The translations under genes and the position numbers were made by a program. Below the pieces are notes generated by a model. It was not told where the DNA came from and ran no database searches. It was given only the letters and a program-made list of their open reading frames with translations. From Nitrosopumilus sp. (lineage in GTDB: Archaea; Thermoproteota; Nitrososphaeria; Nitrososphaerales; Nitrosopumilaceae), in NCBI GenBank assembly GCA_965197525.1, contig OZ240211.1, positions 1,120,001 through 1,184,000 on the forward strand: 64,000 bases of DNA, in the 5' to 3' direction. How positions within the stretch are numbered: position 1 is the first letter of the stretch; the number at the start of each line of letters is the position of its first letter. This document shows positions 2,189 through 20,589 of the stretch, piece by piece.

Positions 2189-2447
2189 GTATTATAAGAT
2201 TTGAAAATATCTGATTAGTAAATTACTAATTTGCCCTTAGTTTTAATTAGATCTTTTGTAACTGTAGTTTTTCGAAGTTCATGACTGCAATATGGAAATT
2301 TACACTCAAACTTGCATCTCATAAAACAGATAGTAATGATTGGTCGATATACTATGCGTAGATCCTAGTCTACTTCAAAAAACTGCATAGCTTCATATGA
2401 TATAATATATTATGCATAGTCTCTAATCTCTTCTAACGTACGAAATG

Positions 2448-2981: not shown

Positions 2982-3432
2982 TCATTAATTTAAGTAAGTC
3001 TTTTTCTAGACTATCTAATCGATTTTTTTCATCCTCAGAGAGTTGTTCGTCATTTATTTTCTTGATTAAGAGTTTGGTTATTTCATGATATGCAGGAAAA
3101 ATTACTTTTTCTGAAAATCCTGGAAGAGGTTTATAATGATAAGGATTAATTTCTGCAGATATATTTTGCTCAGCTGAAAATGTACCTATCTGTTTTAAGT
3201 GAATCCATCCAGCTAGTACGACTATCGGAATACCGATTGAGATTACAGTAACAATATAGATTTCAAATGTTGGAAAAATAACAAGTAAAAAAGGAACTTT
3301 GTCAATTGCAAGAAAGTAAGTACTTGTAAGTATATTGATCATTCCAACGAACACTGCAAAATAAGTGGCATATCCGATTCTAAAATAGAAAAATATCCTA
3401 TATCCGTCGTTTAGTTTTTTCAATGTAGACAC
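2941..3432 (-). CDS. Thaumarchaeal membrane protein, paralog 2
   Basis: YRIFFYFRIGYATYFAVF...EINPYHYK...GG; clear tandem paralog of 2448-2981. Confidence 0.75.
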   Translation of the reverse strand: MSTLKKLNDGYRIFFYFRIGYATYFAVFVGMINILTSTYFLAIDKVPFLLVIFPTFEIYIVTVISIGIPIVVLAGWIHLKQIGTFSAEQNISAEINPYHYKPLPGFSEKVIFPAYHEITKLLIKKINDEQLSEDEKNRLDSLEKDLLKLMNGGHVGNPPKGAF

Positions 3433-3485
3433 TTCGCTTTGTTACTTATATGAATATTTTTGATATTTTATTTTTTAACAAGAAA

Positions 3486-3797
3486 CTAGATCAATGACCG
3501 ATTTTCTGGAAAAAGCCCATCTCCTAGACTCTTGTTATTCCTCTCTGCGTCTGCTGCGTGTTGCCGTGCCTCTCTCTCTCTCTTTTGCATACACCATTCC
3601 AAAGAATCCGCAGATGGTGGTAAATTGGGATTCTCGTAATATGCTAGCTTGTGCTCAAGTGCATCGATGACTCTATTGAATCAATTGTTTTCCTTTTCGA
3701 TTGCATTTATCTTGACATTGAGTACTGATATTCTGTCTGTGAAGGAGCGTATGATTTCCTCCTCCAATTCACCATATGTCAGTCTGCGGTCTTTCAT
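3486..3797 (-). pseudogene. IS66-family transposase N-terminal relic
   Basis: Manual translation MKDRRLTYGELEEE...IEKENN*FNRVIDALEHKLAYYENPNLPPSADSL has an in-frame TGA at 3681-3683. A coiled coil followed by LAYYENPxxPPS is typical of IS66 transposase N-termini. No catalytic domain follows. Confidence 0.6.
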
Positions 3798-3926
3798 ACA
3801 GAAACATGTACTATCAACATAGTGATGCATAAAATCTATTGTTGGCTAGTAGTTCAGAGGACGTGACATCATACTAGTAGAACGTCTATAGAGTTAATAA
3901 TAAAACATTATTTTATTTCAGTTAGA

Positions 3927-4373
3927 TTGATTCAAGGAGTAGAAAACAATCCGGTACAACATTTCATTGATGATAGAGGATTCTTGTCACAGATACTTCC
4001 AGAAGGAGACAAGTCCTTTGAGATAAAGCGCGTTTATTCAACAGGAAACTTCTCCAAAGGCACCATTAGAGGATACCACAAACATCAGCGTGAAAAGAAA
4101 GGATTTTTTGTTACGTCAGGCGCTGCAAAATTTGTTGCAGTAGATGATCGAAAAGATAGCCAAACTTACAAAGAGATAAACACGTTTGTTTTATCAACAC
4201 TGAAACCTACGGTTTTAATTATACCAACAGGTGTGTATACCGGATGGATGTCGCTTGCAGATAATACAGTGATATTGGGAATCTCATCAGAAGTATTTGA
4301 TAGAGATAATCCTGATGATGAGAGGTTGGATCCTAACACTTTTGGTAATGTTTGGGAGATAAAAGACAGATGA
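3927..4373 (+). CDS. dTDP-4-dehydrorhamnose 3,5-epimerase-like cupin (RmlC family)
   Basis: DDRGFLS, GTIRGYHKH and VLIIPTGV cupin motifs. Confidence 0.8.
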   Translation: MIQGVENNPVQHFIDDRGFLSQILPEGDKSFEIKRVYSTGNFSKGTIRGYHKHQREKKGFFVTSGAAKFVAVDDRKDSQTYKEINTFVLSTLKPTVLIIPTGVYTGWMSLADNTVILGISSEVFDRDNPDDERLDPNTFGNVWEIKDR

Positions 4374-5362
4374 AGATACTGCTAACCGGAGGAGCGGGGT
4401 ATCTAGGCTCTGTACTTGCAAGAAAGTTGCTGGTAAACGGTCATCATGTCAGAATACTAGATAACTTTCTGTTTGGGAAGGATTCTATCAAGGACATACA
4501 AGACAACAAAAAGCTAGAGGTTGTACAGGGTGATATCAGAGATTTGGCCATAGTAGGCAGATCGCTTAAAGACATCGATTCAGTGATTCACCTAGCCTCA
4601 ATAGTTGGGACCCAGTCAGCGGAACTAGATCCAAAGACATCAATGGAGATCAACTTTATGGCAACAAGAAACATTGCCGAGTTGTGTAAAATCTATAAAA
4701 TTGAACAGTTTATTTTTGCTAGTACGTGCTCTGTGTACGGTGCTCAACCAGACCAACTAATTACAGAGAGCTCAGAGGTAAATCCGTTGGATTCATACGG
4801 TTTGTCAAAGTTCCAATCAGAACGGGCAATACTGCAAGCGTATGACTATCCTACAATATTGAGATTGGGCACATTGTTTGGTGCATCATACAGAATGAGA
4901 TTTGATTTGGCAATTAATCTGTTTATTGCACAAGCTATGAACAAAGAAAAGATAACGGTATTTGGGGGAGAGCAATGGAGACCGTTTTTGCATGTTGATG
5001 ATGCGGCAGAGGCATTTGTTTTTGCAGTAGAAAACAAGATGGAGGGCATATACAATGTAATTTGGAAGAATCTCACAATTAATCAGATGGCAAAAGATGT
5101 AAAGAAGATAGTTCCAACTAGGATAGAATTGTCAAAAGATATCATAGACAAGAGGGACTATCGTGTAAGTGGAAAAAAGGTGGAAAGATTTGATTTTAAA
5201 GCCAGTAAAGGTATCTCATATGCGGTAAAAGAGTTCAAGACACATATACGAAACGACATAAAAAACTACAAGCAGGACAGATACAGCAACTACAAATCCT
5301 TCTTTAACTCAAAATCCATTCAACGTAAAGTGTATACTCAGGGACCGATATTTAAGAGGTGA
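4370..5362 (+). CDS. NAD-dependent nucleotide-sugar epimerase/dehydratase (extended SDR)
   Basis: ILLTGGAGYLGS, STCSVYG and YGLSK (YxxxK); ATGA overlap with the upstream gene at 4370-4373. Confidence 0.9.
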   Translation: MKILLTGGAGYLGSVLARKLLVNGHHVRILDNFLFGKDSIKDIQDNKKLEVVQGDIRDLAIVGRSLKDIDSVIHLASIVGTQSAELDPKTSMEINFMATRNIAELCKIYKIEQFIFASTCSVYGAQPDQLITESSEVNPLDSYGLSKFQSERAILQAYDYPTILRLGTLFGASYRMRFDLAINLFIAQAMNKEKITVFGGEQWRPFLHVDDAAEAFVFAVENKMEGIYNVIWKNLTINQMAKDVKKIVPTRIELSKDIIDKRDYRVSGKKVERFDFKASKGISYAVKEFKTHIRNDIKNYKQDRYSNYKSFFNSKSIQRKVYTQGPIFKR

Positions 5363-5375
5363 CAGGAGGGATACC

Positions 5376-6101
5376 ATGACAGTTTTTATCACAGGTGCAT
5401 CAGGGGCGTTAGGCTCAGAACTACAAAAGACATATCCTGGTGCCCTAGTGCCAACGCACAAAGAGCTAGATATTGGCAATAGAGAGCAAGTGCTAGAATT
5501 TTTTCAAAAACACCCAGATATTGATACAGTTATTCATGCCGGTGCTCTTACTGGAATAAGACCTTGTGAAGAGGACCAGCCACTAGCATGGAGAACCAAT
5601 GTCGAGGGTACAAGAAATCTTGTAGATGCAGTACTAGAATCAAAACAAAAGATTCAGTTTATCTATGTGAGTACTGCGTGCGTGTTTGACGGGCATCACG
5701 AGATGTACAAAGAGAGTTCCATACCATATCCTGAGAATTTTTACGCACTCACAAAACTGGTGGGAGAGAGCGAAATTAGAAAATTACCAGAATTTTTAAT
5801 TGCAAGAACTAATTTTGTTGCAAAGGAAAGGTGGCCATATCCTAAAGCATTCACAGACAGATATGGGACTTATCTATTTGCAGATGGGGTAGCGCATGGA
5901 ATAAGAGATGTACAAAGAGAAGAGATGACAGGAATTGTGCATATTGTAGGAGATAAAAAGATCTCTGTATATGAATTGGCAAAGATTACGACTCCAGATG
6001 TTGAACCTATGACTATCAAGGATTATTCAGGACCCAAACTAACGATGGATATGAGTTTGGACACAGAGAGATGGAAAAAATATAAAATTTCCAATCCATG
6101 A
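5376..6101 (+). CDS. dTDP-4-dehydrorhamnose reductase-like SDR (RmlD family)
   Basis: ITGASGALG, STACVFDG and YALTK motifs. Confidence 0.8.
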   Translation: MTVFITGASGALGSELQKTYPGALVPTHKELDIGNREQVLEFFQKHPDIDTVIHAGALTGIRPCEEDQPLAWRTNVEGTRNLVDAVLESKQKIQFIYVSTACVFDGHHEMYKESSIPYPENFYALTKLVGESEIRKLPEFLIARTNFVAKERWPYPKAFTDRYGTYLFADGVAHGIRDVQREEMTGIVHIVGDKKISVYELAKITTPDVEPMTIKDYSGPKLTMDMSLDTERWKKYKISNP

Positions 6102-6193
6102 CTTTAAAGACTGTACATATTATACAAAAACTATCAGGGTTATGTTCAGAGTAGAAAATACACAAGATGAATTATAAAGACATATCAAAATAG

Positions 6194-7753
6194 TTAATCT
6201 GTCGGAGAATTTGTTACAAGAATAGTGGTAACATCAGTGAAATTATAAGGATAACCATAACCACTAAAGTAATTTTTATCGTCGAGTAACTCAAAATCCC
6301 CATTAAAATATGCATTAAGGATTAATCTAAACGAGTTAACAGGAGTTATTCCATTATAAATCAACTCATTGTTTTGATCGGGCAGATAATACGCATTAAG
6401 GATGGACATTCTTTCTTGGATAGCTGCATCACTTGGATTGTGATGCCAGTTTGAGGAAGGTTCGGTAAAAAGGCTAAAAGTACCATGATCTCCTTGCAAA
6501 ATGATAACAGGTGGAAAAGTGCTTTCAAGTAATATGATATCGATCATCTCAATCACTTTTTTATTGATAAATTGAACTTGTTCTACATAATCATTTTTGT
6601 CCTCTAATTTAAAGTTCCCAGGAATGACTTTTTTAGGTTGTTTAATCTCACCGTTAGATCCAAACACAAATGGACCATGAGGAGATAGAAAATGTGCATA
6701 AACAAAGAATGGTTCTTCAATGACGTTATGCAAATCAGATAATTCAGAAAATTTGCATAAAACTTGACCAGTACGAAAATGTTCCGTAGGGATATCAGAA
6801 AGTGGCGGATGTAATATAGTGGATTCCCACAAAAGACTATGGAATGGACTACTAAATCCAGGATGTGGGCATAATTGGTAATCATGGGACGTTATAGTGT
6901 TAGGATATATAGGTGTATGTACAACTGTATAGTTTAAAGATTTAAAAATTTTAGATATTTTATTATCATTCAATAGTTTTAAAGGTAAAGTTGAATCAGA
7001 CGAATCGACTCCAACTGTATCAGTAAGGTAATTTAGATATTCCATATTCAATGAAGATGTAACTGAGAGAAATGTTTGAGGATAGTTGCTATGACTATTT
7101 TTGTCAACATGAAATCCTCTTGATTCCAATTCAGATATAAAATCTTGATTATCAAAATTGAATAGTTCTTTTAAAACTTTAGAATTGGTGTATTCATCCA
7201 AGATAATATAATATACGTTGGGAGTGTATCCAAGTGCAGATGCAGACAAAGTATCAAAAGTTATATTATTATCTGCAATTTCAGTAAAACTGTTCTCTAC
7301 CAAGGATACAGTGATGTTAGATGCCGAAACAAGTATTAGAACTATAGCAATAACATTTGCAATTGTTGTAAATTCTACAAAATTTTTCTTAGTCTTTAAG
7401 ATGGAATAAATACCAACGCCGAATATCAGAAGAAAAGATCCCATCAAATAACGATGACGTCCAATCTCAAAATCACCAATCATAGCGTTATTAAAAATAT
7501 TAAAAATGTGTCCATACATAAAAAATAACACAAGACCGAGTGATACTATCAATCCAGATTTCATCTTGTTTTTCAATAAGAGATTTAATAGATACCACAA
7601 ACTGCTTACAATCAGAATGATAACCAGTATTGATAAAATAATGTCAGCGAGATGTATATAGTCAATATTCAAAGAGACAAGCAAGAGAACAGGTATTACA
7701 GCAAACAGAAATGGATGAATGACGCTAGACCTAGTTAACAAAAATTTCATCAT
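6194..7753 (-). CDS. Membrane-anchored alkaline phosphatase superfamily enzyme (LtaS/sulfatase-like transferase)
   Basis: About 5 N-terminal TM helices, then YYIILDEY, SNYPQTFLS, AHFLSPHGPF and LQGDHG metal-binding motifs. Confidence 0.8.
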   Translation of the reverse strand: MMKFLLTRSSVIHPFLFAVIPVLLLVSLNIDYIHLADIILSILVIILIVSSLWYLLNLLLKNKMKSGLIVSLGLVLFFMYGHIFNIFNNAMIGDFEIGRHRYLMGSFLLIFGVGIYSILKTKKNFVEFTTIANVIAIVLILVSASNITVSLVENSFTEIADNNITFDTLSASALGYTPNVYYIILDEYTNSKVLKELFNFDNQDFISELESRGFHVDKNSHSNYPQTFLSVTSSLNMEYLNYLTDTVGVDSSDSTLPLKLLNDNKISKIFKSLNYTVVHTPIYPNTITSHDYQLCPHPGFSSPFHSLLWESTILHPPLSDIPTEHFRTGQVLCKFSELSDLHNVIEEPFFVYAHFLSPHGPFVFGSNGEIKQPKKVIPGNFKLEDKNDYVEQVQFINKKVIEMIDIILLESTFPPVIILQGDHGTFSLFTEPSSNWHHNPSDAAIQERMSILNAYYLPDQNNELIYNGITPVNSFRLILNAYFNGDFELLDDKNYFSGYGYPYNFTDVTTILVTNSPTD

Positions 7754-9150
7754 ACTGCCAGCTTTTTCATCAGATATAAAACTCGTTCAGAGTCACCAAG
7801 TTTGAGTTTTTGACGTATATCAAAAAAATCACTAAATGCTTTCTCAAAGGTCTCCCCAGTATAATCAGCAAAGATATCCTCTCGTGTTACAAGTAATCTG
7901 CTTATCTGAGAGTCAGATTTTGGAATAAATTCAATTATCAAGAATCGGGATACTATTGTTTTAAAGAATGTGGCAATCCTATATAACGGAAGATTGTTGC
8001 TGATTGCCAAGTGATGTATCAGGGCCAAAGCCATAACCGTATCTGCAGGCCCTCTATCAACAAACGACTTTCTCTCTGAATTGGCCCACCCCACGCTGGG
8101 GCTAGGATTAGTCAAGTCAAGTAACAGTGGCAGAATATTAGCATCTCTATCTTTTTGTGCACTCAAAAAGTTCTGTTCCACTGCTGCAGGGTCAATGTCA
8201 AATGATACGGTAAAAATCCCTTTAGAGGTGGCAGTCCTACTAAACACACCAGTATTCGCACCTAGATCCCACACAACAGAGGGTTTTACATCATCGAGCC
8301 AATCAGATACAACCCTCTTTTTTTGCTCAAACCCCTGTTCAGAATAGTTCGTATCAGAGTAATAATCGGCCCATTGGGTCCCCTTGGGAGACCAATTCAA
8401 TTTTTGTATCCCGGAATGTAGACTGGAGACTAACCCAACGAACTGATTCTTGGACAATTTTTTCTGTTTTGCGATTTTGACTTTTTTATCCCCGTAATGT
8501 TTCTGACTTTTTGCATGGGCATGAATGTGTGCTAGCAACGAATATGAGAGAAACATCTTGGTAGGTAAAAGAGCACTTGCCATATCAAGTGGAATACCGT
8601 CTACATAGTTTCGTAGCAGTTGACTGAGGCGTATATCCTTGTGGGCCATCAATGCAAGGGGGGCAAGAAAATGAGAGCAGAACTGTTTGTACGCCTTCCA
8701 GATATCACCTTCCTTGTACATCTCAAAGGATAAAGTATCAATTAGAATGGGTTTACAGTCTTTGAATTGAATGTTGTATGCACTGCTGTCTTTTAGTGTC
8801 ATTCCAAAATCCATAGCAATGCTTTGAATCTCAAGTGTGGCTAGTGCAGCCTGTTTTAACTGGCTGAATGACCATTCGTAAGGATATGATACAAATGGAA
8901 TTATGGAGGGTTTGATTATTTTAAAAGACTTGTCTTTATTGTGAATGGGAGTAACAACATCTGATGTTTCGTGGGGTACAAGCAGGTGGGATTCCACTAG
9001 TTTCTCATAAAGACCAGAGGTCATCAGATGCTCATAATCTTCTTTGTAGGACGAGTTGATTTGGCGGTACAGCGTATCACCAGAATAAAATAAAAAGCCG
9101 CTGGGATCTCTAAAGGAACTGGGTTCAAAGTGGTGTGAGGGTACAGACAA
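7750..9150 (-). CDS. NoeA-like protein: N-terminal kinase-like domain plus class I SAM methyltransferase
   Basis: C-terminal VWDLGANTG SAM motif. The N-terminal LKDSSAYNIQF...ILIDTLSF resembles the kinase catalytic loop and metal-binding Asp. Overlaps the downstream gene by 4 bp. Confidence 0.75.
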   Translation of the reverse strand: MSVPSHHFEPSSFRDPSGFLFYSGDTLYRQINSSYKEDYEHLMTSGLYEKLVESHLLVPHETSDVVTPIHNKDKSFKIIKPSIIPFVSYPYEWSFSQLKQAALATLEIQSIAMDFGMTLKDSSAYNIQFKDCKPILIDTLSFEMYKEGDIWKAYKQFCSHFLAPLALMAHKDIRLSQLLRNYVDGIPLDMASALLPTKMFLSYSLLAHIHAHAKSQKHYGDKKVKIAKQKKLSKNQFVGLVSSLHSGIQKLNWSPKGTQWADYYSDTNYSEQGFEQKKRVVSDWLDDVKPSVVWDLGANTGVFSRTATSKGIFTVSFDIDPAAVEQNFLSAQKDRDANILPLLLDLTNPSPSVGWANSERKSFVDRGPADTVMALALIHHLAISNNLPLYRIATFFKTIVSRFLIIEFIPKSDSQISRLLVTREDIFADYTGETFEKAFSDFFDIRQKLKLGDSERVLYLMKKLAV

Positions 9151-9151
9151 T

Positions 9152-9367
9152 TTAGTTCTTGATGAATTTCTCTTTAATCTTGTGCCAATAAATCTTCAGA
9201 GTAATGCCAACGCCTGCTAGCGCGCCAATTAACATTTGAATTATCACACTTCCACTACCAGGGTCCAAGTATGCGTATGCCTCTGTAACAAAGAATCCTC
9301 GGAATAGTAGGGCTAACGTAAAGATAGGTAAAACAGTATAAAGATAGTTATGTGCTCTGATCATCAA
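9152..9367 (-). CDS. Small membrane protein with AYAYLDPGSGS motif
   Basis: Two hydrophobic segments around YLDPGSGS and a basic C-terminus; ends 1 bp before the methyltransferase start. Confidence 0.75.
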   Translation of the reverse strand: MMIRAHNYLYTVLPIFTLALLFRGFFVTEAYAYLDPGSGSVIIQMLIGALAGVGITLKIYWHKIKEKFIKN

Positions 9368-9784
9368 AGTGTAAAAAACTAGTAATTATTTAAACTATCA
9401 GTACAGACAAAGGTCCAAATTAGAATGATGTATTTCGAGACAAAAAGATATAGGAATTCAAGTAGAGAGTGTATCTGAACATAAAACAGAGCAAGTGACC
9501 TTAGGAGAGTGCAACTATATGTTTTGGCAGTCAACTTTTTGATGTAAATTTGAGCTAGTTTGCAACAAGTTATTGTGTTTTTACAAGGTTATAGCAGAAC
9601 TTGGTCTGCGATGATCCTAGATAAAAATTACAAGATGGTAGAAACTAGCTGTTGGCATCATTGATTATTTTTAATAATTCTAGAGACGTGCCGGCAGGAC
9701 AGTTAGACTGGTAGTATATGACATACATTTAATGTTACGTGTCAAGACAGACCCCATAGTGATATTTTTATTGATATAGTCAAA

Positions 9785-10712
9785 ATGTGTGTTATGAAGA
9801 TAATTCATGTAGGCTCTCATGCAGGCGTTCCTGGGATACTTGCCAAGTATCAGAGGGAGACGCATGATGTCGAACTAGTCTACAAGGATTTGGATATCCT
9901 GGGGGGACGTGCAGTTACTATGGATATACAGGATACAAGTCGTCCATTGACCCGTTGGTGCAAAGAGTGCGTATGTGGCGACACGGCAGGACATCAGAGA
10001 AGGTAGGTGGCGGGAACAGTGGTGGAATACAGCAAGGAAGACAGGTAGCCAACCACGGGTATCACAAAGAGATACGTAACAGGTGCAAAGGTTGCAAGGG
10101 GGTCATACATGTACATGGTGCGTATGCCCTCTTGCCAATGATTCGCAAGGTAGCCCCTGATGCGGGTATCGTTATTCATTATCATGGAACGGATCGTCGT
10201 ACAGGTAAACCAGAAGAGTTGGAGCGGTATGAGAGATACGCAGATTGTGTGCTGGTATCCACCACTGACTTGTTACAAAGATGATCATGCACAATGGGTT
10301 CGCAACCCGATAGACTTGGATCATTTCAAACAGGGTTGACAAACCAGAAGAGTGTGATACTGCATTGTGTATCGTGTGGCTGGCAACTGACACCAAAGAG
10401 GCAGCACGCAGGGAGTTGGACAGGGTACGGCCGGAACTGGGGTTACACTATCATAATAGGTTGGAGAGTCCGATACCATACAAGGACATGCCCCGGATGC
10501 TTGCACGGTACGGGTACTATTTGGATGTAAAGGGTTTGGGCGGGGCGTTGAACATGATTGCAAACTCTATGATCGGGTTGCAGGCGCAAGCTGTTGGCAG
10601 GCCTGTATTTTTTAACGGAAAGGTTGTTTGTGGGAAGCATGTGCTACATGACGGTAGCAAGGCGGTAGAACGGTTAGATGAAATATACAGTGGAATAAAA
10701 CGAAATCTGTAA
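9785..10712 (+). pseudogene. Frameshifted glycosyltransferase-like gene
   Basis: Three consecutive + strand fragments in different frames: MKIIHVGSHAGVPGILAKY (9785), VIHVHG...IVIHYHGTD (9955) and YKDMPRMLARYGYYLD...GLQAQAVGRPV (10365). Together they read as one GT-B-like protein. Confidence 0.6.
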
Positions 10713-10950
10713 GCTAGATTTGATATTTAGGTGTATAAAACATCTTACTGTCTGTTGGTTTGTAAACGAGTAATATGACTTTAATTTATAGAATTTCCGA
10801 TAATAAGAGTAGGTTTACTGCAGTTGTTCCTCCTTCTGTGCATCTATTACAACCTGCTGTCATAGTGGAACGACGCAAAAAACACGTGTTGTGTGTCTAG
10901 CGTATGCTGTGCAACCATACAACGTTTTGACGCAAGATACATCTCATCAG

Positions 10951-11054
10951 ATCTTGCTGCAAAAAAAATCCGCCATATACAGGAAGTCAAAAGCAATAAA
11001 ATGCAGATAAAATGACATCCAATAGGCTTGAAAAACTAAGATTTGGATAACACC
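10951..11054 (+). repeat. Left copy of a 104-bp inverted repeat; probable IS (IS701-like) 3'-end relic
   Basis: 90/104 identical by manual alignment to the reverse complement of 15421-15524; reads ...FDARYISSDLAAKKIRHIQEVKSNKMQIK*. Confidence 0.85.
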
Positions 11055-11158
11055 ACACTTGAGCAAATTTTTATAACATGCCTGATTACTTTCCTACTTC
11101 TTTTCTACTTGTATCCAAGAGATTAGATAAGATCTTTCAGCGATAGTTTTAAACAAAT

Positions 11159-12328
11159 GTGATTTTCACGTCATATATGGATAATGAAACCGCTCCTTTT
11201 ACAGATTTGCCTCAAGCATTAGTAGAACAGATGTTCAGTGTTTCAAAAGAACTAGCTTCAGGGTTAGCTACGCATATTTCTCAAATTCAAAACAAGCGAG
11301 AAGATCTACGTACCAATCTTGAAGAGAGCATACGTCATGAATCAGAAATAATTGCGACGCAGCATTTTCCCACTACAGCTGGCGTGGATGGATCATATTG
11401 TGCAGATAAGCTTCTCGCAACAGATTTTGTAGCTATGGCAGCAGTTGCAGTAGAAGGATTAGTGCCACCAAAATTAAAAGAACCATTATGGCCTAAACCG
11501 CATCATTTCGTAAATGTTGAAAGTTTAACACATGATGAAGCAAGTTTGATTTGGGCAAAAGCTATAATGTTTTCAATGGAAGTTCAATTATCCGCATTAG
11601 CTCCACATGATGTAGTATTTCTAGATGGATCGTTAACGACCCTTTCAATTGCATTTAACCAAGCATTTGGACATTCTACTCCTGAAACATTACGTAATTT
11701 TTTGATAGAAGGAGATTTAAAAAAATATTCAGACGATAGAGAAAAATTTGCATCGGTTGAAATTACCTTGGAAAAATATAGTGAAATTTTGTCAGGAAAA
11801 CGAACAGACAAGATCACGGCAGCCATTCCAAAGTATAGTAGGCGAAATGAAATTTGTGAAAGTATTGGAATTTCAGATTATGATGACAGGGGACTGCTCT
11901 CACTAATTCTAAATCCAGGGGAGTTTACAAATCCTATGCCGATGATAAAAGAAGGGGGTGGAAAATGGTTCACTTCTAAATTACCAGAAACAGTAAGGAA
12001 GACTATCGAAGACATAGAGTATTTGTTGAGCCGTGCGTACGTAATTTATTATAAACCATTCAAACATTTTCCAGCAATTAGAATGGAAGTGAGTGAAACA
12101 GTAGCAAAAAATGATAATAGGTTAGCTATGCTGCTATCAGGGATAAGAGTGCAGTCTGGAACTCCAGGGATGATGGAACCATATCCAACTTATCTTGCAG
12201 ATAAAATGGTAAGACATCTCTCAACAGCGTTACCTGCAATGAAAGGCTTATCAATAACAGAAATAGCATCAGAATGGAAAGGCAACATAGGAGATGTGTA
12301 TTTATCCACACATAGTTACAGGACTTGA
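11159..12328 (+). CDS. nurA: NurA-family 5'-3' nuclease
   Basis: TAGVDGS and VFLDGSL acidic catalytic motifs; C-terminal MEPYPTYLAD. Confidence 0.85.
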   Translation: MIFTSYMDNETAPFTDLPQALVEQMFSVSKELASGLATHISQIQNKREDLRTNLEESIRHESEIIATQHFPTTAGVDGSYCADKLLATDFVAMAAVAVEGLVPPKLKEPLWPKPHHFVNVESLTHDEASLIWAKAIMFSMEVQLSALAPHDVVFLDGSLTTLSIAFNQAFGHSTPETLRNFLIEGDLKKYSDDREKFASVEITLEKYSEILSGKRTDKITAAIPKYSRRNEICESIGISDYDDRGLLSLILNPGEFTNPMPMIKEGGGKWFTSKLPETVRKTIEDIEYLLSRAYVIYYKPFKHFPAIRMEVSETVAKNDNRLAMLLSGIRVQSGTPGMMEPYPTYLADKMVRHLSTALPAMKGLSITEIASEWKGNIGDVYLSTHSYRT

Positions 12329-12332
12329 TATC

Positions 12333-14114
12333 ATGAACGATTTAGAACAAGCAGTGGATAACGGGGAAAAAATCGGAGTAATTGGTTCGCCGTCACGTAC
12401 TTCAAGACTGTCATTAGATATTTTGGGCACTGCCGTAGAAAAGCGATTAGTTGGGACAATTTCTGTTTTTAAATATAGACAGAACGATAGTGTGAATTTT
12501 GCATTGGGGCAAATTACAGAAGTGACTCTTTCAAATCAATTTGCACAAGACCCGATTATGAGGGGACTAATTAGACAGAGAGGAAGTGTAGAACCAATTA
12601 CAAAACAGCAGGATATTCACATGGCAGAAATGATGGTAAGTGCAGTTTTTGAGGAAAGCAATAAAGGATTAGAACAAAGCTCGCTAGATACAATTCCTTC
12701 CACAGGCACTCCAATTAAACTGATTAATCAAGACATCATGAGCCAAATTGTTGCACCATACGAAAAGGACCTTTCAATAGTTGGTAAAGTGTTTGGTAAT
12801 GAAGTGTTAATGCCTAGCTGGTTCAGACATTTTGGAAGAGCTTCAGAAGGCGGTATTGGTGATGCAATGCATTTAGGAATTTTTGGAAAAACAGGTTCAG
12901 GAAAATCAGTATTGGGGAAAATGATATTGTTGTCATATATGAAACACAAACCAATGTCTATTTTAATTTTAGACCCCCAAGGGGAATTTTCAAAAATGGC
13001 ATTAGATGAAGACGTTTCAAAATTTGTTAAAGAATATTGTGGAAAGGAAATAGAGGTATATGATTTATCCCGATTGCTTTTAGTTTCTAAACATGATCTT
13101 TTTAAAAAAATTTTAGTGTCTTCCAATTTTCTTAGAAAACTCGGTATAAAACATCTGGATAATCAAATGGATGGAGCAGAACAAATTTTAAGAATATTGT
13201 TGCACAAATATGGCCATGCAGTTTCAAGTTCAATAACTGGAGAAGTTAAAATTTGGAAGGCGTATTCGAGAGAAGTTTTTGATCACGTTTGGGAAAGAAT
13301 ACAACACGTAGCATCTGGTAGAGGACCAAATCCTGCACACCCAGTAATCGATCATATCTACACTGCTACAGATACTCGAAATAGAATTTTAAATACTATG
13401 GACAGTGCCAATGAGGATGAATTTTATGAGTTATGGAGAAATGTTTTACATTTATTTGGAAGAGAAAATAAATATGAAGTGACACGATTGGATAAAGTTT
13501 TAGAAACGATTGGAAATAAAAAAAATGGGAAAATTGTCATTGTTAATTTATCCGACAATGGTGTCCCCGACGAGCTATTTTGGAATGAAAGAAGTCAATC
13601 CATAGCAATAAACCACATTTTAGAGAATCTTGTAGATATTGCAAAGATGAAATACAACCAAGGAGGAGATCTCAACACACTTGTTGTATTGGATGAAGCA
13701 CATCGTTTTGCGCCACGCCGTATTGAAGTTGATGATGAAGAAATAGAAGAATTAAGGCATACTCTACGAGATGCAGTTAGAACGACCAGAAAATACAAAT
13801 TAGGATGGATGTTTATCAGTCAAACTTTGGCCAGTTTAGATAAGGAAATTATCAATCAGTTAAGGATGTATTTTTTTGGACATGGTCTTGCTTGGGGTAC
13901 GGAATTAGAGGCGTTACGACAGTTGATTGGAGGAAATTCATCGGCTCAGAAACTATATCAGCAGTTTAAAGATCCTGAAAGTAGCATAGGTGAAAAAAAA
14001 TATTCTTTTATGGGCATTGGGCCTTCATCACCCCTGTCATTCTCACAGGTGCCGTTATTCTTCAATTCATTAGATTTTCCAAAAGAATACTTATCAAATA
14101 ATAAAACGGAGTAG
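12333..14114 (+). CDS. herA: HerA/FtsK-family ATPase/helicase with N-terminal HAS barrel
   Basis: Walker A GIFGKTGSGKS, ILDPQGEF, Walker B VVLDEAHRF, TRKYKLG and ISQ. ATG at 12333 lies 4 bp after the nurA stop. Confidence 0.9.
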   Translation: MNDLEQAVDNGEKIGVIGSPSRTSRLSLDILGTAVEKRLVGTISVFKYRQNDSVNFALGQITEVTLSNQFAQDPIMRGLIRQRGSVEPITKQQDIHMAEMMVSAVFEESNKGLEQSSLDTIPSTGTPIKLINQDIMSQIVAPYEKDLSIVGKVFGNEVLMPSWFRHFGRASEGGIGDAMHLGIFGKTGSGKSVLGKMILLSYMKHKPMSILILDPQGEFSKMALDEDVSKFVKEYCGKEIEVYDLSRLLLVSKHDLFKKILVSSNFLRKLGIKHLDNQMDGAEQILRILLHKYGHAVSSSITGEVKIWKAYSREVFDHVWERIQHVASGRGPNPAHPVIDHIYTATDTRNRILNTMDSANEDEFYELWRNVLHLFGRENKYEVTRLDKVLETIGNKKNGKIVIVNLSDNGVPDELFWNERSQSIAINHILENLVDIAKMKYNQGGDLNTLVVLDEAHRFAPRRIEVDDEEIEELRHTLRDAVRTTRKYKLGWMFISQTLASLDKEIINQLRMYFFGHGLAWGTELEALRQLIGGNSSAQKLYQQFKDPESSIGEKKYSFMGIGPSSPLSFSQVPLFFNSLDFPKEYLSNNKTE

Positions 14115-14119
14115 AACTG

Positions 14120-15337
14120 TTGATACGGCACCATCTTAATGTAGTGGATTTATTTGCAGGATGTGGAGCATTAAGTGCAGGATTTAACAATGTTGAAAAT
14201 AATCCATATAATGTTGTTTTGGCAAATGAAATCGATCCGCATGCAGCAAAGGCATATGAATTGAATCACCCTTCAACAGAAATGTTTTTGGATGACGTTA
14301 AACAATTAACTCAAAAAAAAATACGATTGATAACAGGATTAAAGAAAAATGAAATCGATGTAGTTATTGGCGGGCCGCCATGTCAAGGTTTTTCCGCAGC
14401 GGGCAATAGATTTGAAAACGACCCACGAAATAAATATTTTCTAGAATTTATAAGATTGATCAAAGAACTAAATCCTACAGTTTCAGTATTAGAAAATGTT
14501 CCTCAATTTCTGACTACAGCAAATGGCAGATACGCAAAAATATTTTCAAAATTAATGAGCAAACTTGGATATAAGACAAGAATCACAGTGTTATTAGCTA
14601 GTGACTACGGAATACCTCAAGTTAGAAAACGAGCTATTTGTATCTCTGTAAAAAACAATTTTAAAGATGAAATTACTTTTCCTGCACCCACTCATGAAAA
14701 AATTCTTAATGCACATTTAATTCAAAAAGGAAACCTTGAAGGAATCGCGCGTCAAGAAGATTCAAACCTAGAAAAGTTTGTATCAATTAGTGATACTATA
14801 GCGGATTTACCCAAATTAAATCCAAAAAATACAAATGAAACCAACTATTCAAAAAAGCCATTTTCAGATTATCAAAAAGAGCGAAGGAAAAAATCTAAAA
14901 ATATTTCTCATCACGAATACTGGGGACATTCTAAATTATTGTTAAAGTACATCTCAAAAATTCCTGAGGGTGGACGAATGATCGAAACATATTCGGAAGA
15001 CATGTGGAAAGGGAAAGGTTTCGGACAAGCTTATGGACGTTTACATAGAAATGGAGTAGGACAAACCATCACTACTTTCTTCCACAATCCTGGGTCTGGT
15101 CGTTTTATACACTATCGAGATTTACGTGCAATTTCAGTCAGAGAAGCAGCAAGAATTCAAGGATTTGACGATAATTTTATTTTTTATGGAAGTAAAACTC
15201 AACAAGAAAAACAAGTAGGTAATGCAGTACCTCCACTATTAGCACAAAAAATTGGAGAACATGTATATCAATCTATTTTTCTTAAAAAAACAGTACCTAT
15301 ACTGATAATCAAAAATTTATCGGTATGTAAATTTTAA
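14120..15337 (+). CDS. DNA (cytosine-5)-methyltransferase
   Basis: Motif I DLFAGCGAL, IV GGPPCQGFS (catalytic Cys), VI ENVPQ, VIII PQVRKR and X QVGNAVPP; 5 bp after the herA stop. Confidence 0.93.
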   Translation: MIRHHLNVVDLFAGCGALSAGFNNVENNPYNVVLANEIDPHAAKAYELNHPSTEMFLDDVKQLTQKKIRLITGLKKNEIDVVIGGPPCQGFSAAGNRFENDPRNKYFLEFIRLIKELNPTVSVLENVPQFLTTANGRYAKIFSKLMSKLGYKTRITVLLASDYGIPQVRKRAICISVKNNFKDEITFPAPTHEKILNAHLIQKGNLEGIARQEDSNLEKFVSISDTIADLPKLNPKNTNETNYSKKPFSDYQKERRKKSKNISHHEYWGHSKLLLKYISKIPEGGRMIETYSEDMWKGKGFGQAYGRLHRNGVGQTITTFFHNPGSGRFIHYRDLRAISVREAARIQGFDDNFIFYGSKTQQEKQVGNAVPPLLAQKIGEHVYQSIFLKKTVPILIIKNLSVCKF

Positions 15338-15420
15338 TAAACCGCAAACTGTATTGATCCCGGCATACCAAACTGATGTAACTATATGTGAAACAAGAAA
15401 GAAATTTAGATAGTAATCGG

Positions 15421-15524
15421 GGCGTTGTCCAAATCTTAGTTTTTCAAACCCATTGGATGTTATTTTATCTGCATTTTATTGCTTTTAACTTCCTGTATGT
15501 GATGGAATTTTCTCGTGGCAAGAT
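15421..15524 (-). repeat. Right copy of the 104-bp inverted repeat
   Basis: Reverse complement matches 10951-11054; reads ...LAKEHLATRKFHHIQEVKSNKMQIK*. Confidence 0.85.
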
Positions 15525-15849
15525 GTTCTTTGGCCAATCGCACTCCATTCCACATTAGAAAGGTGTCTGTATAATACAATCCAACATTACCATTACGTTA
15601 TCATGCCAAAAAATTAGTTATTACAACAAAACCAATACTAAGAACTCCACCTAATAGAACTATATCCCGAGCATTGTCAATTATTTCATTGAACATGAAT
15701 TAGATTCTATACTGTGATTAATAAATAGAGGGTTATAACTAAATAACCTATACATGAATTTAGCTGGTTATTCCATGGAAAGGACAGTTGTTGATGAAGT
15801 TACTGTCTTGATTTGCTAGATACTTATTAACATCATTTTAAATTGGTTC

Positions 15850-16299
15850 ATGGATGATCCTCATCATTGTAGGTGTTTTTTTGTCAAGGACACCCAATGT
15901 TTTGAAGATATTCTTCTAGATTTTGGTTTTCAAGATGAGCTGCAAGAAGATCATGGACAATTATATGGATATGTATTGCGAGTGAGTGACAAACTTCAAC
16001 ACCACATAAAGGTAATGCCTGATGGGAATATTGAATCAGAAATGGAACCTCCTCCTGCATATCCTGCAGCTCATATAAATCAAGAACATAGTTATTCAGC
16101 GCATAAAGAGACGAGGCAGGTTTTACGTCTAGCAAGAGTTGATTACGATGTAATTTCTCCAATACCTGACACCTGTAAAAACCGTAAAATAAAAAAACCA
16201 GACAGTCCTACGCACGCAGCTGAATTTGTCGTTGCAGGAATAATTGGGATTACAGCAGGTTATATTTTAAAAAAACTACTTGAAGACGATGAGGAATAG
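15850..16299 (+). CDS. Hypothetical protein with C-terminal hydrophobic helix
   Basis: 149-aa ORF with a plausible ATG; no motif recognised. Confidence 0.6.
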   Translation: MDDPHHCRCFFVKDTQCFEDILLDFGFQDELQEDHGQLYGYVLRVSDKLQHHIKVMPDGNIESEMEPPPAYPAAHINQEHSYSAHKETRQVLRLARVDYDVISPIPDTCKNRKIKKPDSPTHAAEFVVAGIIGITAGYILKKLLEDDEE

Positions 16300-16561
16300 G
16301 ACTTCACTGAAGATTCTTCTAACCTAAATATTTATCATAATTTATTGACAAATCATGTACGTCTTCGATATAAGAAATGTCCATGTAATGACAGTGTTCT
16401 CTTTGATTGCTTTTGGTGAATTGGGACATATCGCTTCTAAGATAAACACAGAATATGATAAAAGATGTGCGATAGCGTGTCTTGTTGCTTCTGATACGAG
16501 ATTTATCCATGCCTAAAATAGGTATACTTTTATCAACACATTCATTCAGTAGTTATTGGTC

Positions 16562-16878
16562 TTATGATTTTATTATATCATAGTATTTAGCTAACATCTG
16601 ATCGCTTGATAAATGAACATATGGATTAATTCTATCAACAAGTGACTTTATCACGTATTTGAGACATCGGTCTGCATCTTCTCTCGTAATTTATTTTCCG
16701 TTATGATAGTATTTGTTACGTTTATTTTTCAACTCCGTTAAGAGATCATAAGATTTTTCATCAATTGTCCTGAAATGCAAGAACTTCCAAAATATAGTCA
16801 AACGTCCAGTAATTCGAATTTATCAGTTTGCTTAAACGCTGTGAACCCATGTTCTTCTGGGATAGTAACGCATTCCAA
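16562..16878 (-). pseudogene. Degraded HEPN-domain gene fragment
   Basis: Manual translation IDEKSYDLLTELKNKRNKYYHNGK*ITREDADRCLKYVIK has an RX4H motif in helical context, with an internal stop and probably an upstream frameshift. Confidence 0.4.
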
Positions 16879-17121
16879 GGATTAGAATAGTATCTCTCTC
16901 TATCACACTCCAGCTAATAATAAAATATGATCTGGAGACGCCTGCTAGGGCGTTTGTAAGAAAGATGCCGGAATCAGGAACGATAATTATTGACAAGCAG
17001 ACAGGAGAGGAGTATCATGCAGAATAAAGGATGAACTAGTTTCAGGATACTGCAAGCCTGTACATAAAGAAGAAAAGTAAACTGGGAATTGTATAACTCT
17101 AAAGGAAACTATTGTGATCGG

Positions 17122-17325
17122 TCAAATCATGCGTAACTCTTTTAGAATTTTTTCAAGTTTGTCAAACACGTGATCAGGGCATGGGTATTTTGGTGTTGAA
17201 CCAATCCTATTCCATGACGTGTGCTTGGTTTTCCCATGTCTTCTTTTGATATCTGCAATCCAGCATGTTTTAACCGTCTTGCCATAACGCTTCTTATAGA
17301 TTTCCTGTGCTTCCATATAGGTCAT
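17122..17325 (-). CDS. Small basic putative nucleic-acid-binding protein
   Basis: TYxExQ...YGxTVKTCWIAxxK...YPCP pattern, recalled as a small domain often appended to RlmD-type methyltransferases. Confidence 0.6.
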   Translation of the reverse strand: MTYMEAQEIYKKRYGKTVKTCWIADIKRRHGKTKHTSWNRIGSTPKYPCPDHVFDKLEKILKELRMI

Positions 17326-17390
17326 AAATAATGTAAGACGGAATAGATAAAAATGTAATAGGCTGCCTTGGTGTAAGATATAGCAATATC

Positions 17391-18107
17391 ATGCAACCTG
17401 ACAGCCCTCAACCAAGCGATCCTGCAATCACGAATCGACTGTCGCAGGCATGGGATGCGCTATATCGTAAAGGTAGATATCATGCAGAACACGCACTAGA
17501 CTTTACTGACGATATTCTAAAAGAGCTGCATGCCAATCCGGACCTGATTAGTGGTCGTGGACTCTATGTCGGGTGCGGGAATGGACGGAACTACTCCAAG
17601 CTAGCAGAGTCAGGATTGGATGTAACGGGACTGGATGTATCCGGGGTGGCACTAGCAGAGTTATCAAAAAGGTTACCACAGTACGCTGCCATGCTACACC
17701 AGTGTGATTTCTTGGATTACAGGCAAGAAGAACTGTTCCAATACGTCATAGCAATACAGGTATTCCAGCACGGGAACATGGACAGAGTAAACAGATATTT
17801 TGAAAAGGCATCCATGCTCCTAGAAAGAGACGGGCTGGTATTTCTACGCGTAAATGCCTCAAACACGGTAATACAATACGATCATGATGTAATTGAAGAG
17901 AATGATACCGTGGGATTTACCGTTCACTACATGGAAGGACCAAAGAAGGGATTGGATATACATTTCTTCTCCAAAGAAGAGATCTGTAGTCTTGTATCCA
18001 AAAACGATATGACTGTAGTACGGGAATTAAGAAATGTCACAACCAAACGAGTCTCTCCTCGTGTCGGCTCATGGTCACAGTGGGAACTGGTTGCAAGGAA
18101 GAATTAG
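17391..18107 (+). CDS. Class I SAM-dependent methyltransferase
   Basis: LYVGCGNGRN, GLDVSGVAL and YVIAIQVFQH motifs. Confidence 0.85.
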   Translation: MQPDSPQPSDPAITNRLSQAWDALYRKGRYHAEHALDFTDDILKELHANPDLISGRGLYVGCGNGRNYSKLAESGLDVTGLDVSGVALAELSKRLPQYAAMLHQCDFLDYRQEELFQYVIAIQVFQHGNMDRVNRYFEKASMLLERDGLVFLRVNASNTVIQYDHDVIEENDTVGFTVHYMEGPKKGLDIHFFSKEEICSLVSKNDMTVVRELRNVTTKRVSPRVGSWSQWELVARKN

Positions 18108-18134
18108 GACGGTATGAGTATTAATGAAATCAAT

Positions 18135-18359
18135 TCAATCATGATTATCTTTTACAAATTTTTCTTTCATTTCTTTCAAATTTCTTACTTTGATATATTC
18201 TAAAAAGGCATGATTTGCAATATCTGATAATTCCTCAATTATGTTTTGATACATGTCATTCTTCAAATAGTCGTTTCCTTCTTGTCCTTCTCCTTTTTCT
18301 AATCTATCATGACAGAGTGCGATAAAATCCTCGAGATGTTTTTTCATTGCTTTATTCAT
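18135..18359 (-). CDS. Small hypothetical protein, MazG/dUTPase-like helical motif
   Basis: IEELSDIANHA (EExxD) pattern. Confidence 0.45.
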   Translation of the reverse strand: MNKAMKKHLEDFIALCHDRLEKGEGQEGNDYLKNDMYQNIIEELSDIANHAFLEYIKVRNLKEMKEKFVKDNHD

Positions 18360-18924
18360 TGTTTAGTCTTAGTTTTTGGTAGTTTATTCTAATAATTATA
18401 CTTTGTATAATTTAGTTGGTACGAGACCGTAGATTCGTTTAGATGAGATGGAAACAATACTGGATCTTGAATTTATGTCTAGTTGGCAGATATTCGATCT
18501 CATATCTGGATGTATGGATTCGGGCCCCATGTTCACTCAGGTCAGCAAATTGCCAGTATTGTGGCATTAGATAACATAAAACACCATCTCAACACCTGAT
18601 AGTAACTGCTGGTAGGGATCTTTGTCTGATCTGATCCGGCAGTTCAAACGAATTCCAATTAGAATTCATAACCATATTTTCCACTGCAATACGAGAGAAG
18701 AAACACCCCTCCCATATACATTCAGGATTCCAAGTTTGCTAGATACCGACATGTTGCAGTATTTGAAATTCACTTACAACTCTCATGCAAAGCTTGAATT
18801 AAAGGAATAATCTCAATTATCCAATCAAAAGTGACTATACATAATAAACGACAAAAATACTAGTTTGTTCTCCAATCTAGATTACAATACAGTTCAGAAT
18901 CAGTGTTACTAGATTCATTTACTA

Positions 18925-20589
18925 CTACATGGTAGCCTGTGAGGCCTCGTGGAACATTTGTGACTTTGCACATCCTGCAGCTAGTTCATCACCTGCACCG
19001 CGTCTCATAAGACCACGGTACAAACCATCCTCTAGTTTGACGCCTTCGCGTTCCTCCCATTCCTCGACAGTAATGGAGTATTTCTTTTGGATTCTGTCCC
19101 TGTACCACTCTGGTATCACGTTAAACGCACAGAACGGTACGATACGCAAGTCAGGTGTAAGATAATGAATATCACATCTTTGTAACCGCTCCAAGTCCTC
19201 GTTGTATTTGTCCTGAAAATGCATCATGCCCAAGAACAATCCTTTGACGTGCCAAGAGCCTACTGAATCAAACGATCTCTTCATCAGGATGTTACCGAAC
19301 ATCTTGGCCAAATCAAGACCGGCAGGCTGTTTCTTTGTATCAACAAATCCCTTTAGTTTACGGACTACCTCTAACATTGTAAAATACTTGTTTTTACCAG
19401 AACGAATCTCTTCTGCCTTATCTTCAAATAACTCTAACATTCCCTGGATATCACAAAACTTTGTCAATGGTACAAATTTCTTGGTATCTGCATCCTCAAA
19501 GATGTATGTGCCGGCACCACAGGCAAAGTGTATAGACAGCTCGTACTTTGGTTTACTAGAGAATGCTTCAATAACATTGGTCAGAGGCATACAGCTAGGA
19601 ACAGGGAACCAGTCATCGACTGTAACCTCGCCTGCAGTCTGCTCTTCAATTCTTTGGATACAGTCAGGTATTGTAATACGGTATTTTTCACGTTCCGATT
19701 TACCCATACGACCAGTAAGAGAGACAGGTTGAAAGTTGACTGCGTGTACTACATCCATGTTCTTTTGTGCATAGCGAATAATACCGCCCAACTCGTGATC
19801 ATTAATTGATTTGATTACAGTGGGTACAAACACCACGGTAGTACCGGTCTTGCGACAGCTATCCAGAGCGTACGGAATCTCCCAGTGATTCTTGGGATTT
19901 GTTCTTGCAGTCACACCGTCAAACGACAGATACAGATTGTTACAGCCAGCCAGCCTAACCTCACGTGCGGCTTCTGGATCCATTGCATGTCTGATACCGT
20001 TTGTGTTCATCTGGATGTGGTCAACACCCTCCTCCTTCATTATTTTTATAACATCTGCAATATCCTCACGCAACATGGGTTCACCACCAGTAATCTGCAT
20101 GGAATTACCAGGGATTGGTCTCTCTGCACGCAGCGTCTTCATCATTGCACGAATCTGTGTATGGTCAGGCTCGTACATGTATGCGCCTTCTAACCCTTTC
20201 TTTACATAAAAGAAACAGTACCAGCAAGTCAAGTCACAACGGTTAGTCACTATCATGTTTGCAAGACCGCTATGTGACAAATGATTAGAACATAGACCAC
20301 AGTTATTAGGACAGGAACATTTGTCAATCAATACGTTTGGGGCATGGGCACCCTTGCCGTCCATCCAGTATGTACTGAACTTGTTATACATATCAAAAGA
20401 GCCAAAGTACAGTTCCTCGCATTCGCCGTGTGTCGGACATGTCTTGGTCATAAACACCTTGCTGTCACGCTCAAAGACTTCGGCATCCAGTATCATGTTG
20501 CAGTCAGGACAGATACTCTGTGTAAAACGTATAGTAGATTTCTTTCCCAGATTTTTGACACTCTGGTTGGATATCTGAATTAGCGCCAT
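18925..20589 (-). CDS. tes: Tetraether lipid synthase (GDGT macrocyclisation radical SAM enzyme, MJ0619 family)
   Basis: N-terminal CPDC...CPTHG, CPNNCGLC, radical SAM CDLTCWYC, NFQPVSLTGR, MMHFQDKYN and RCDIHY...PFCAFN match the MJ0619/Tes architecture. Confidence 0.88.
   Translation of the reverse strand: MALIQISNQSVKNLGKKSTIRFTQSICPDCNMILDAEVFERDSKVFMTKTCPTHGECEELYFGSFDMYNKFSTYWMDGKGAHAPNVLIDKCSCPNNCGLCSNHLSHSGLANMIVTNRCDLTCWYCFFYVKKGLEGAYMYEPDHTQIRAMMKTLRAERPIPGNSMQITGGEPMLREDIADVIKIMKEEGVDHIQMNTNGIRHAMDPEAAREVRLAGCNNLYLSFDGVTARTNPKNHWEIPYALDSCRKTGTTVVFVPTVIKSINDHELGGIIRYAQKNMDVVHAVNFQPVSLTGRMGKSEREKYRITIPDCIQRIEEQTAGEVTVDDWFPVPSCMPLTNVIEAFSSKPKYELSIHFACGAGTYIFEDADTKKFVPLTKFCDIQGMLELFEDKAEEIRSGKNKYFTMLEVVRKLKGFVDTKKQPAGLDLAKMFGNILMKRSFDSVGSWHVKGLFLGMMHFQDKYNEDLERLQRCDIHYLTPDLRIVPFCAFNVIPEWYRDRIQKKYSITVEEWEEREGVKLEDGLYRGLMRRGAGDELAAGCAKSQMFHEASQATM

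Follow-up and report, generated by a model that had tools for sequence, protein, structure and literature searches.

The genome of Nitrosopumilus sp. considered here is a single contig of 2.21 Mb (C1), and the window that we analysed is a stretch of 64,000 nucleotides within it (C1:1120001-1184000). It contains a nurA-like nuclease gene, a herA-like gene for a hexameric ATPase and a gene for a DNA cytosine-5 methyltransferase (C5 MTase), which follow one another in the same orientation and together fill window positions 11177-15337, with intergenic gaps of 4 bp and 5 bp; the coordinates of the open reading frames (ORFs) confirm the arrangement described in a first-pass annotation of this DNA. 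That annotation had proposed an undescribed restriction-modification (RM)-like system, in which a second, mobile HerA-NurA machine degrades unmarked invader DNA whilst the MTase marks self. On the comparative evidence set out below, we consider it probable on balance that the three genes constitute one horizontally acquired, RM-like defence unit.

The nurA-like gene (11177..12328, plus strand) encodes 383 amino acids from an ATG at 11177; the GTG at 11159 given in the ORF list lies six codons further upstream. Its product matches the Pfam NurA family with 24.2 bits (cut-off 21) and none of the NCBIfam models. All of 59 homologues share residues D71, G72 and E135, and almost all share D150 and D342. 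When an AlphaFold2 (AF2) model of the protein (predicted local distance difference test score, pLDDT, 93.6) was compared with known structures by Foldseek, the top matches were the NurA proteins of Thermococcus kodakarensis (9x1m_G, E 1e-11), Sulfolobus solfataricus (2ygk) and Pyrococcus furiosus (3tal), with E-values from 1e-11 to 1e-8; the protein is predicted to adopt the RNase-H-like NurA fold with conserved acidic catalytic residues. With this protein as query, phmmer found only 336 matches at E<=1e-3 amongst 1.84 billion cluster representatives, 187 of them passing E<=1e-10 and 75 passing E<=1e-30, and by its sequence the cassette NurA belongs to a compact subfamily set apart from canonical NurA.

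As listed, the herA ORF begins at 12294 and overlaps nurA; since the homologues align only from about residue 14 onward, the likely start is the ATG at 12333, 4 bp past the nurA stop, which gives a gene of 593 codons (12333..14114, plus strand). The product matches Pfam DUF87/HerA with 53.6 bits and retains intact Walker A (GKTGSGKS) and Walker B (VLDEAH) motifs, as expected of a hexameric ATPase/translocase. Its AF2 model (pLDDT 79) finds its matches in full-length subunits of HerA hexamers, including those of DUF4297-HerA (9C1M, 8ZIR), the T. kodakarensis HerA-NurA complex, Deinococcus radiodurans HerA, TdpA and Sir2-HerA, with E-values between 1e-20 and 1e-15. The equivalog models for the repair-type HerA (NF040937 and NF040819) score the protein at 27-29 bits against cut-offs of 800-970.

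The MTase gene (14120..15337, plus strand, 405 amino acids) starts with a TTG, 5 bp past the herA stop, that aligns exactly with the methionine of its homologues. The protein matches PF00145 (DNA_methylase) with 254 bits and TIGR00675 with 216 bits, and motifs I (DLFAGCG), IV (GGPPCQGFS), VI (ENV), VIII (QVRKR), IX (REAARIQGF) and X (GNAVPP) are intact; all landmarks of the ten-motif set are present, and judged by its motifs the enzyme appears to be a complete C5 MTase. The earlier impression that all catalytic motifs of the trio are intact thus held when the MTase landmarks I-X, the HerA Walker motifs and the NurA acidic residues were read. Native coding sequence extends to about 15297, and the alignment with homologues holds to '...KKTVP' (residue 393); according to this alignment, the last ~12 codons and the stop are supplied by an inserted repeat with its boundary at 15298. 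The junction falls after motif X and past the end of the Pfam match (residue 382). The only other C5 MTase of the genome (393 amino acids) lies directly after an EcoO109I-like Type II endonuclease (L103:506-2619, that is C1:1087940-1090053), and the two are by sequence an ordinary Type II RM pair; unlike this enzyme, the cassette MTase has NurA-HerA as its sole partners.

A separate housekeeping operon of nurA (379 amino acids), herA (525), mre11 (416) and rad50 (813), the existence of which the first-pass annotation had anticipated, is present at C1:1103154-1109563 (L012:7154-13563), about 17 kb before the window start and 22 kb upstream of the cassette. A third, stand-alone nurA (367 amino acids)-herA (608 amino acids) pair is located at C1:1206960-1209889 (L013:4960-7889) between cobalamin genes and an FTR1-type permease. 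BLAST comparison of the cassette pair with the housekeeping and the third pairs detected no similarity (best E-value against the housekeeping genes 0.13 or worse), and the cassette pair is an additional, non-housekeeping nurA-herA pair. In a survey of 300 other genomes of the class, relatives of the cassette HerA turned up in one of 66 from the genus (as a fragment of 125 amino acids), in four of 180 from the family and in 14 of 39 from a sister family; the cassette is accessory and not vertically conserved, as had been supposed. It is also AT-rich, with a GC content of 35.3% as compared to 39.6% for the genome and 43.3% for the housekeeping nurA-rad50 operon, yet with a place amongst the lowest 9.6% of same-size windows it is not extreme in composition. 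Scanning with HerA revealed no relative on viral contigs and a single close fragment (L131) on metagenome contigs.

The few copies within the family include decayed ones. In G152, an IS630-like DDE_3 transposase gene interrupts herA and leaves the downstream MTase intact (L117:1498-3942, L126:1507-3436); G180 and G249 hold herA fragments only. Restriction systems usually decay by losing the destructive arm before the methylase, and the decay in G152 fits this pattern because herA is broken while the MTase is intact.

All HerA relatives of at least 53% identity that were placed on contigs carry a C5 MTase, which lies within 2.6 kb in 11 of 11 loci of this clade; the linkage on which the first-pass annotation had staked its proposal is therefore conserved amongst the closest homologues. 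In eight of these loci (L014, L016/L017, L100, L101, L131, L136, G152 and the window) the MTase gene comes directly after herA, overlapping it or within 28 nucleotides, with an overlap of about 11 nucleotides in relatives. Below about 53% HerA identity the third gene is DruA or there is none. HerA identities to the window of 75, 58, 54 and 53% are accompanied by identities of 66, 56, 52 and 53% for the directly linked MTases, a parallel divergence as expected of co-inherited genes. The neighbours of the homologous loci are mostly defence-related or mobile, and include Type III RM and EcoRII-type RM genes, an OLD-family nuclease, ParE, Fic and HEPN proteins, and transposases. Five of the 11 loci also encode Vsr, which repairs the T:G mismatches that arise from deamination of 5-methylcytosine (5mC); the presence of Vsr fits the formation of 5mC in vivo in this clade.

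The remaining three loci, L015 (Nitrosotenuis chungbukensis), L098 (Nitrosotalea) and L099, carry a neighbouring module of HATPase_c_3 (GHKL), Vsr and Dcm genes. Such GHKL ATPase-Vsr-Dcm modules lie beside NurA-HerA in the Nitrosotenuis and Nitrosotalea relatives (L015:9911-13376, L098:7823-11389, L099:7819-11445 and L016:11041-13867), and may either be a MORC-like RM system in their own right or act as a partner of the pair.

In a maximum-likelihood tree of 87 HerA rows the Dcm-linked rows form a single clade, with a Shimodaira-Hasegawa-like approximate likelihood-ratio test (SH-aLRT) value of 100. Its sister group consists of the archaeal NurA-HerA-DruA cassettes L018, L019, L022 and L046, in which DruA occupies the same downstream slot, and both lie inside an archaeal group (99% support) that is in turn surrounded on the tree by bacterial cassettes with DruA. 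When the paralogues from the same genome serve as outgroup, the root is that of midpoint rooting, although on very long branches. Because the Dcm-linked loci form one clade nested in the DruA-linked family, the simplest history would be that DruA was replaced by Dcm once, in the same slot. By sequence, the trio is a Dcm branch of a larger DruA-NurA-HerA family that has spread horizontally.

The extent of this larger family became apparent from a scan of genome contigs with the HerA alignment, which identified 80 loci at 33-49% identity, spread over numerous phyla of bacteria and archaea. Counting these 80 and four close-relative loci, the NurA partner resides directly upstream of herA in 81 of 84, and the NurA-HerA pair of the window falls inside the family tree. 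DruA (PF14236) is carried by 55 of the 80 loci, in bacteria upstream of nurA (37 of 69 second-upstream genes) and in archaea directly after herA; none of the 80 has a C5 MTase within 10 kb. A hidden Markov model (HMM) built from 41 DruA sequences found no DruA in window positions 1-26000 or in any Dcm-clade locus, and a search of the whole genome with PF14236 found none either, but its positive controls gave no signal. DUF4338 has been read as a GNAT-like domain by the Aravind group (PMC10853773), and we found no paper that names a DruA-NurA-HerA cassette. Two members of the family have unusual companions: at L022:12998-15538, NurA-HerA-DruA is followed by an 846-amino acid protein kinase-ORC/CDC6-like protein, and at L135:7393-8970 DruA is fused to DUF488-N3a/N3i domains. 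Furthermore, at four loci from Nitrososphaeraceae (L073, L074, L075 and L084) NurA and HerA are joined by Mre11 and Rad50, and on the tree they nest among the bacterial DruA cassettes; this Nitrososphaera operon, which has been read as a set of repair genes (PMC13707971), may use a horizontally acquired, defence-type NurA-HerA.

The flanks of the cassette are rich in insertion sequence (IS) debris. An inverted repeat of 104 nucleotides with 87% complementarity (10951-11054 versus 15421-15524) encloses the three genes. Its left arm is part of a 238-nucleotide remnant (10817..11054, plus strand) of the 3' end of a DDE_Tnp_1 IS, which is 82-90% identical by blastn to four longer genomic copies and has its terminus (11054) directed toward the cassette. 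The right arm (15421..15524, minus strand) is the same IS 3' end in inverted orientation, recognised by its complementarity to the left arm and from other IS copies, with its terminus at 15421 likewise toward the cassette; on both sides the IS body is deleted. The arm sequence occurs at no fewer than seven places in the genome, and a fuller copy of roughly 1.6 kb (C1:987382-989021) bears a fragmented DDE_Tnp_1 transposase. The arms are thus remnants of a multi-copy IS and not dedicated cassette ends, and of the cassette's earlier description as bounded by inverted repeats, the repeat itself is real but its arms are debris rather than proven transposon ends. Between the MTase and the right arm lies the end remnant of a second repeated element, an IS or a miniature inverted-repeat transposable element (MITE), of ~123 nucleotides (15298..15420); it has at least seven genomic copies with the sharp common start TATACTGATAATCAAAA, three of which extend into a shared body of 260 nucleotides. 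A composite transposon with two complete IS copies was considered and could not be confirmed, the locus having only 3'-end stubs of 238 and 104 nucleotides with the second repeat intervening on the right. The layout shows repeated IS traffic and is compatible with a decayed composite transposon without proving one.

In the 122 nucleotides upstream of the nurA-like gene (11055..11176, plus strand) an A/T box, TTTTAAAC, is found at 11147-11154, ~27 nucleotides before the nurA ATG; it is a candidate archaeal TATA box and, to judge from its position, might serve as the promoter of a leaderless transcript. A Pfam and PADLOC scan of the neighbours recognised no adjoining mre11, rad50 or restriction endonuclease (and no Metallophos or SMC genes), in agreement with what had been noted before. 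The ORFs flanking the cassette have no Pfam or PADLOC match and are not kept beside homologous cassettes; a restriction endonuclease invisible to Pfam could escape such a scan. One ORF of 149 amino acids at 15850-16299 has no Protein Atlas match in addition.

The cassette apparently sits within a strain-variable region, because three congeners share window DNA solely from a radical-SAM gene (18925-20589) rightwards. This gene is present in 31 of 40 congeners with protein identities of 92-97% (mostly 95-97%); a glycan-locus gene further left is present in just two of the 40. Window positions 1-18900 have the appearance of a strain-variable island, in which glycan-biosynthesis genes lie together with IS scraps and a fragment of a GT4 gene (9955-10284). 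An attempt to place the insertion borders by synteny with the three congeners defined none, since the shared DNA reaches no further left than the radical-SAM gene at 18.9 kb.

How does the trio relate to characterised systems? Its closest kin by descent are the DruA-NurA-HerA cassettes, with which it shares orthologous NurA and HerA proteins (26-49% identity over the full length, in one tree) and the format of a compact, mobile three-gene unit; with the archaeal members it also shares the position of the third gene directly after herA, the difference being that this gene encodes a C5 MTase and not DruA. The exchange has a parallel in Druantia (Doron and colleagues, 2018), of which type I has DruA (PF14236/DUF4338) as its signature and type II reportedly a cytosine methylase, DruM. 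Assignment of the trio to Druantia type II itself was rejected: the MTase matches the PADLOC DruM models (2e-84), but generic Type II MTase models better (4e-99), and no gene resembling DruE, DruF or DruG adjoins. MADS (mad1-mad8) was likewise discarded, with HerA matching mad8 in the P-loop region only (E 1e-11, positions 28-246 of the 314-position profile), no match for NurA and weak mad2 matches in unrelated neighbours.

In terms of logic, the closest known system appears to be TdpABC, in which one modification gene is likewise accompanied by genes for a hexamer resembling HerA (TdpA) and a nuclease resembling NurA (TdpB). TdpC alone makes phosphorothioate, and tdpABC is a modification-restriction system (PMC12914056). 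Against the TdpAB structures (PDB 8WET/8WFD), the fold of the HerA model resembles that of TdpA (8wfd_A) with E 5e-17, the NurA model aligns with TdpB (8wfd_G) at E 2e-4 and a template-modelling (TM) score of just 0.35-0.37, and the profile match to TdpA has an E-value of 0.003; judged from the models, the likeness is one of class and not of orthology. The modification also differs, as a Dcm-type enzyme would place 5mC where TdpC introduces backbone sulfur. By analogy, restriction by a modification-gated HerA/NurA-like machine would thus not be wholly unprecedented.

Other systems share single aspects. The archaeal HerA-NurA end-resection complex has the same two folds and catalytic residues, and supplies the best structural matches (those from T. 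kodakarensis, S. solfataricus and P. furiosus); unlike that module, the cassette lacks linkage to mre11-rad50 and vertical conservation, and scores far below the equivalog cut-offs. Sir2-HerA and DUF4297-HerA exemplify the recruitment of a HerA hexamer to defence, and the cassette HerA matches DUF4297-HerA (9C1M, 8ZIR) best of all, by structure as well as by profile; in contrast to both, the effector here is NurA, rather than Sir2 or a DUF4297/Cap4-like protein, and a methylase is present. Like those NTP-dependent RM systems in which the motor is separate from the nuclease (Type III; CglI R+H, PMC5737866), the cassette encodes methylase, ATPase motor and nuclease together; unlike them, its motor is a ring of the HerA/FtsK class and not a superfamily 2 (SF2) helicase, its nuclease has an RNase-H fold and not PD-(D/E)xK, and no specificity or Res subunit is recognised in the cassette. 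From Type II RM systems, with which it has a C5 MTase in common by sequence, it is distinguished in that no adjacent sequence-specific endonuclease was found. PADLOC 2.0 contains no NurA model and yields only generic, partial HerA matches (E 1e-13 or weaker), PHROGs and NCBIfam hold no description of the trio, and literature searches on NurA/HerA with methyltransferase, Dcm, DruA or DUF4338 did not find it described. The suggestion that the system is undescribed therefore stands as far as PADLOC 2.0 and the literature go, with the qualification that the trio is a sub-branch of a larger DruA cassette family and that its TdpABC-like logic is known.

If the genes do form an RM-like unit, the C5 MTase would mark the host chromosome at its target motif, and the HerA hexamer, an ATP-driven translocase of double-stranded DNA, together with a NurA dimer, an RNase-H-fold exo- and endonuclease, would provide the destructive arm. 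The HerA6-NurA2 assembly would then thread and processively degrade incoming DNA that lacks the mark. The two activities could be coupled in either of two ways. Methylated DNA might block loading, translocation or cutting, in the manner of phosphorothioate and TdpAB; according to An and colleagues (Nat Chem Biol, 2025) phosphorothioate on self DNA reportedly inhibits both translocation and cleavage by TdpAB. Alternatively, the MTase might be the subunit that recognises the site and, where this is unmodified, licenses the motor-nuclease, like Mod in Type III systems. Of the original proposal of a second, mobile and RM-like HerA-NurA, the accessory nature of the pair and the conserved MTase linkage have stood; the computational tests that had been set beforehand as able to refute it were all run, and none did. 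The defence function, its dependence on methylation and each step of self-marking and degradation are what we infer.

Several observations, taken up here with the alternatives that they favour, weigh against a single methylation-dependent unit. HerA pores contact the DNA backbone, whereas the 5-methyl group lies in the major groove; as read-out of 5mC by a backbone-gripping pore is not obvious, the Type III-like coupling is kept as an alternative. NurA-HerA can evidently work without a methylase: the 55 wider-family loci with DruA have no C5 MTase within 10 kb, and 19 rows of the HerA tree have neither DruA nor MTase. In the three clade loci with a GHKL/Vsr/Dcm module, the MTase is of another type (30-33% identity), is encoded on the opposite strand and belongs to that module, remnants of which also occur at L016. 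These points would suit two independent modules that adjoin through sharing the same islands, namely a methylation-independent NurA-HerA with an anti-plasmid, anti-virus or abortive role directed at free DNA ends, and a Dcm that is an orphan or part of another system such as GHKL-Vsr-Dcm. We regard such an arrangement as unlikely, though far from negligible. It does not account for the direct succession of herA and MTase in eight of 11 loci, for the divergence of the two genes in step, or for the placement of the MTase in the exact slot that DruA holds in the sister cassettes; moreover, because none of the 80 more distant loci has a C5 MTase within 10 kb, the linkage is specific to the clade and does not reflect an island-wide background.

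The family also has a subclade linked to Mre11-Rad50 in Nitrososphaeraceae, a repair-type context that has been interpreted as such (PMC13707971), and the folds of NurA and HerA equal those of the archaeal end-resection complex. The cassette might accordingly be imagined as an accessory module for DNA repair or recombination, an additional machine for end resection, possibly in the service of a mobile element, to which the methylase is incidental or epigenetic. This is improbable: the genome already possesses the canonical nurA-herA-mre11-rad50 operon; the cassette is missing from nearly all congeners, has IS debris on its flanks and is pseudogenised in relatives; its HerA scores a small fraction of the equivalog cut-offs for the repair-type protein; and neither DruA or Dcm partners nor defence-gene neighbourhoods fit a role in repair. 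Slightly less probable again is a decaying relic, a unit with intact-looking genes that has ceased to function or to move in this genome, for although both flanking IS copies are short remnants, the second repeat has clipped the 3' end of the MTase gene and replaced the C-terminal tail of the enzyme, and this genome has no Vsr, the three ORFs retain their full length and all their catalytic motifs, and the clip lies beyond motif X and the end of the Pfam domain.

With the RM-like defence unit as the favoured interpretation, a bolder proposal can be put forward tentatively, as possible rather than probable: NurA-HerA-Dcm may be a distinct class of RM system, with 5mC as the gate for its ring translocase and RNase-H-fold nuclease, or with the methylase itself as their guide. 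Since Dcm took over the slot of DruA in one step, DruA would then correspond in function to an enzyme that marks or recognises self. If this is true, the cassette would provide the first methylation-based partner for a NurA-HerA machine, and the principle of TdpABC, a modification-gated ring translocase-nuclease, would no longer be confined to backbone sulfur but apply to the commonest base modification as well. Ammonia-oxidising archaea, whose antiviral repertoire is poorly known, would gain a further defence system. Finally, the single swap from DruA to Dcm would tie the widespread DruA-NurA-HerA cassette, and by extension the DruA of Druantia, to the marking of self and non-self, and may offer the first testable hypothesis for DruA.

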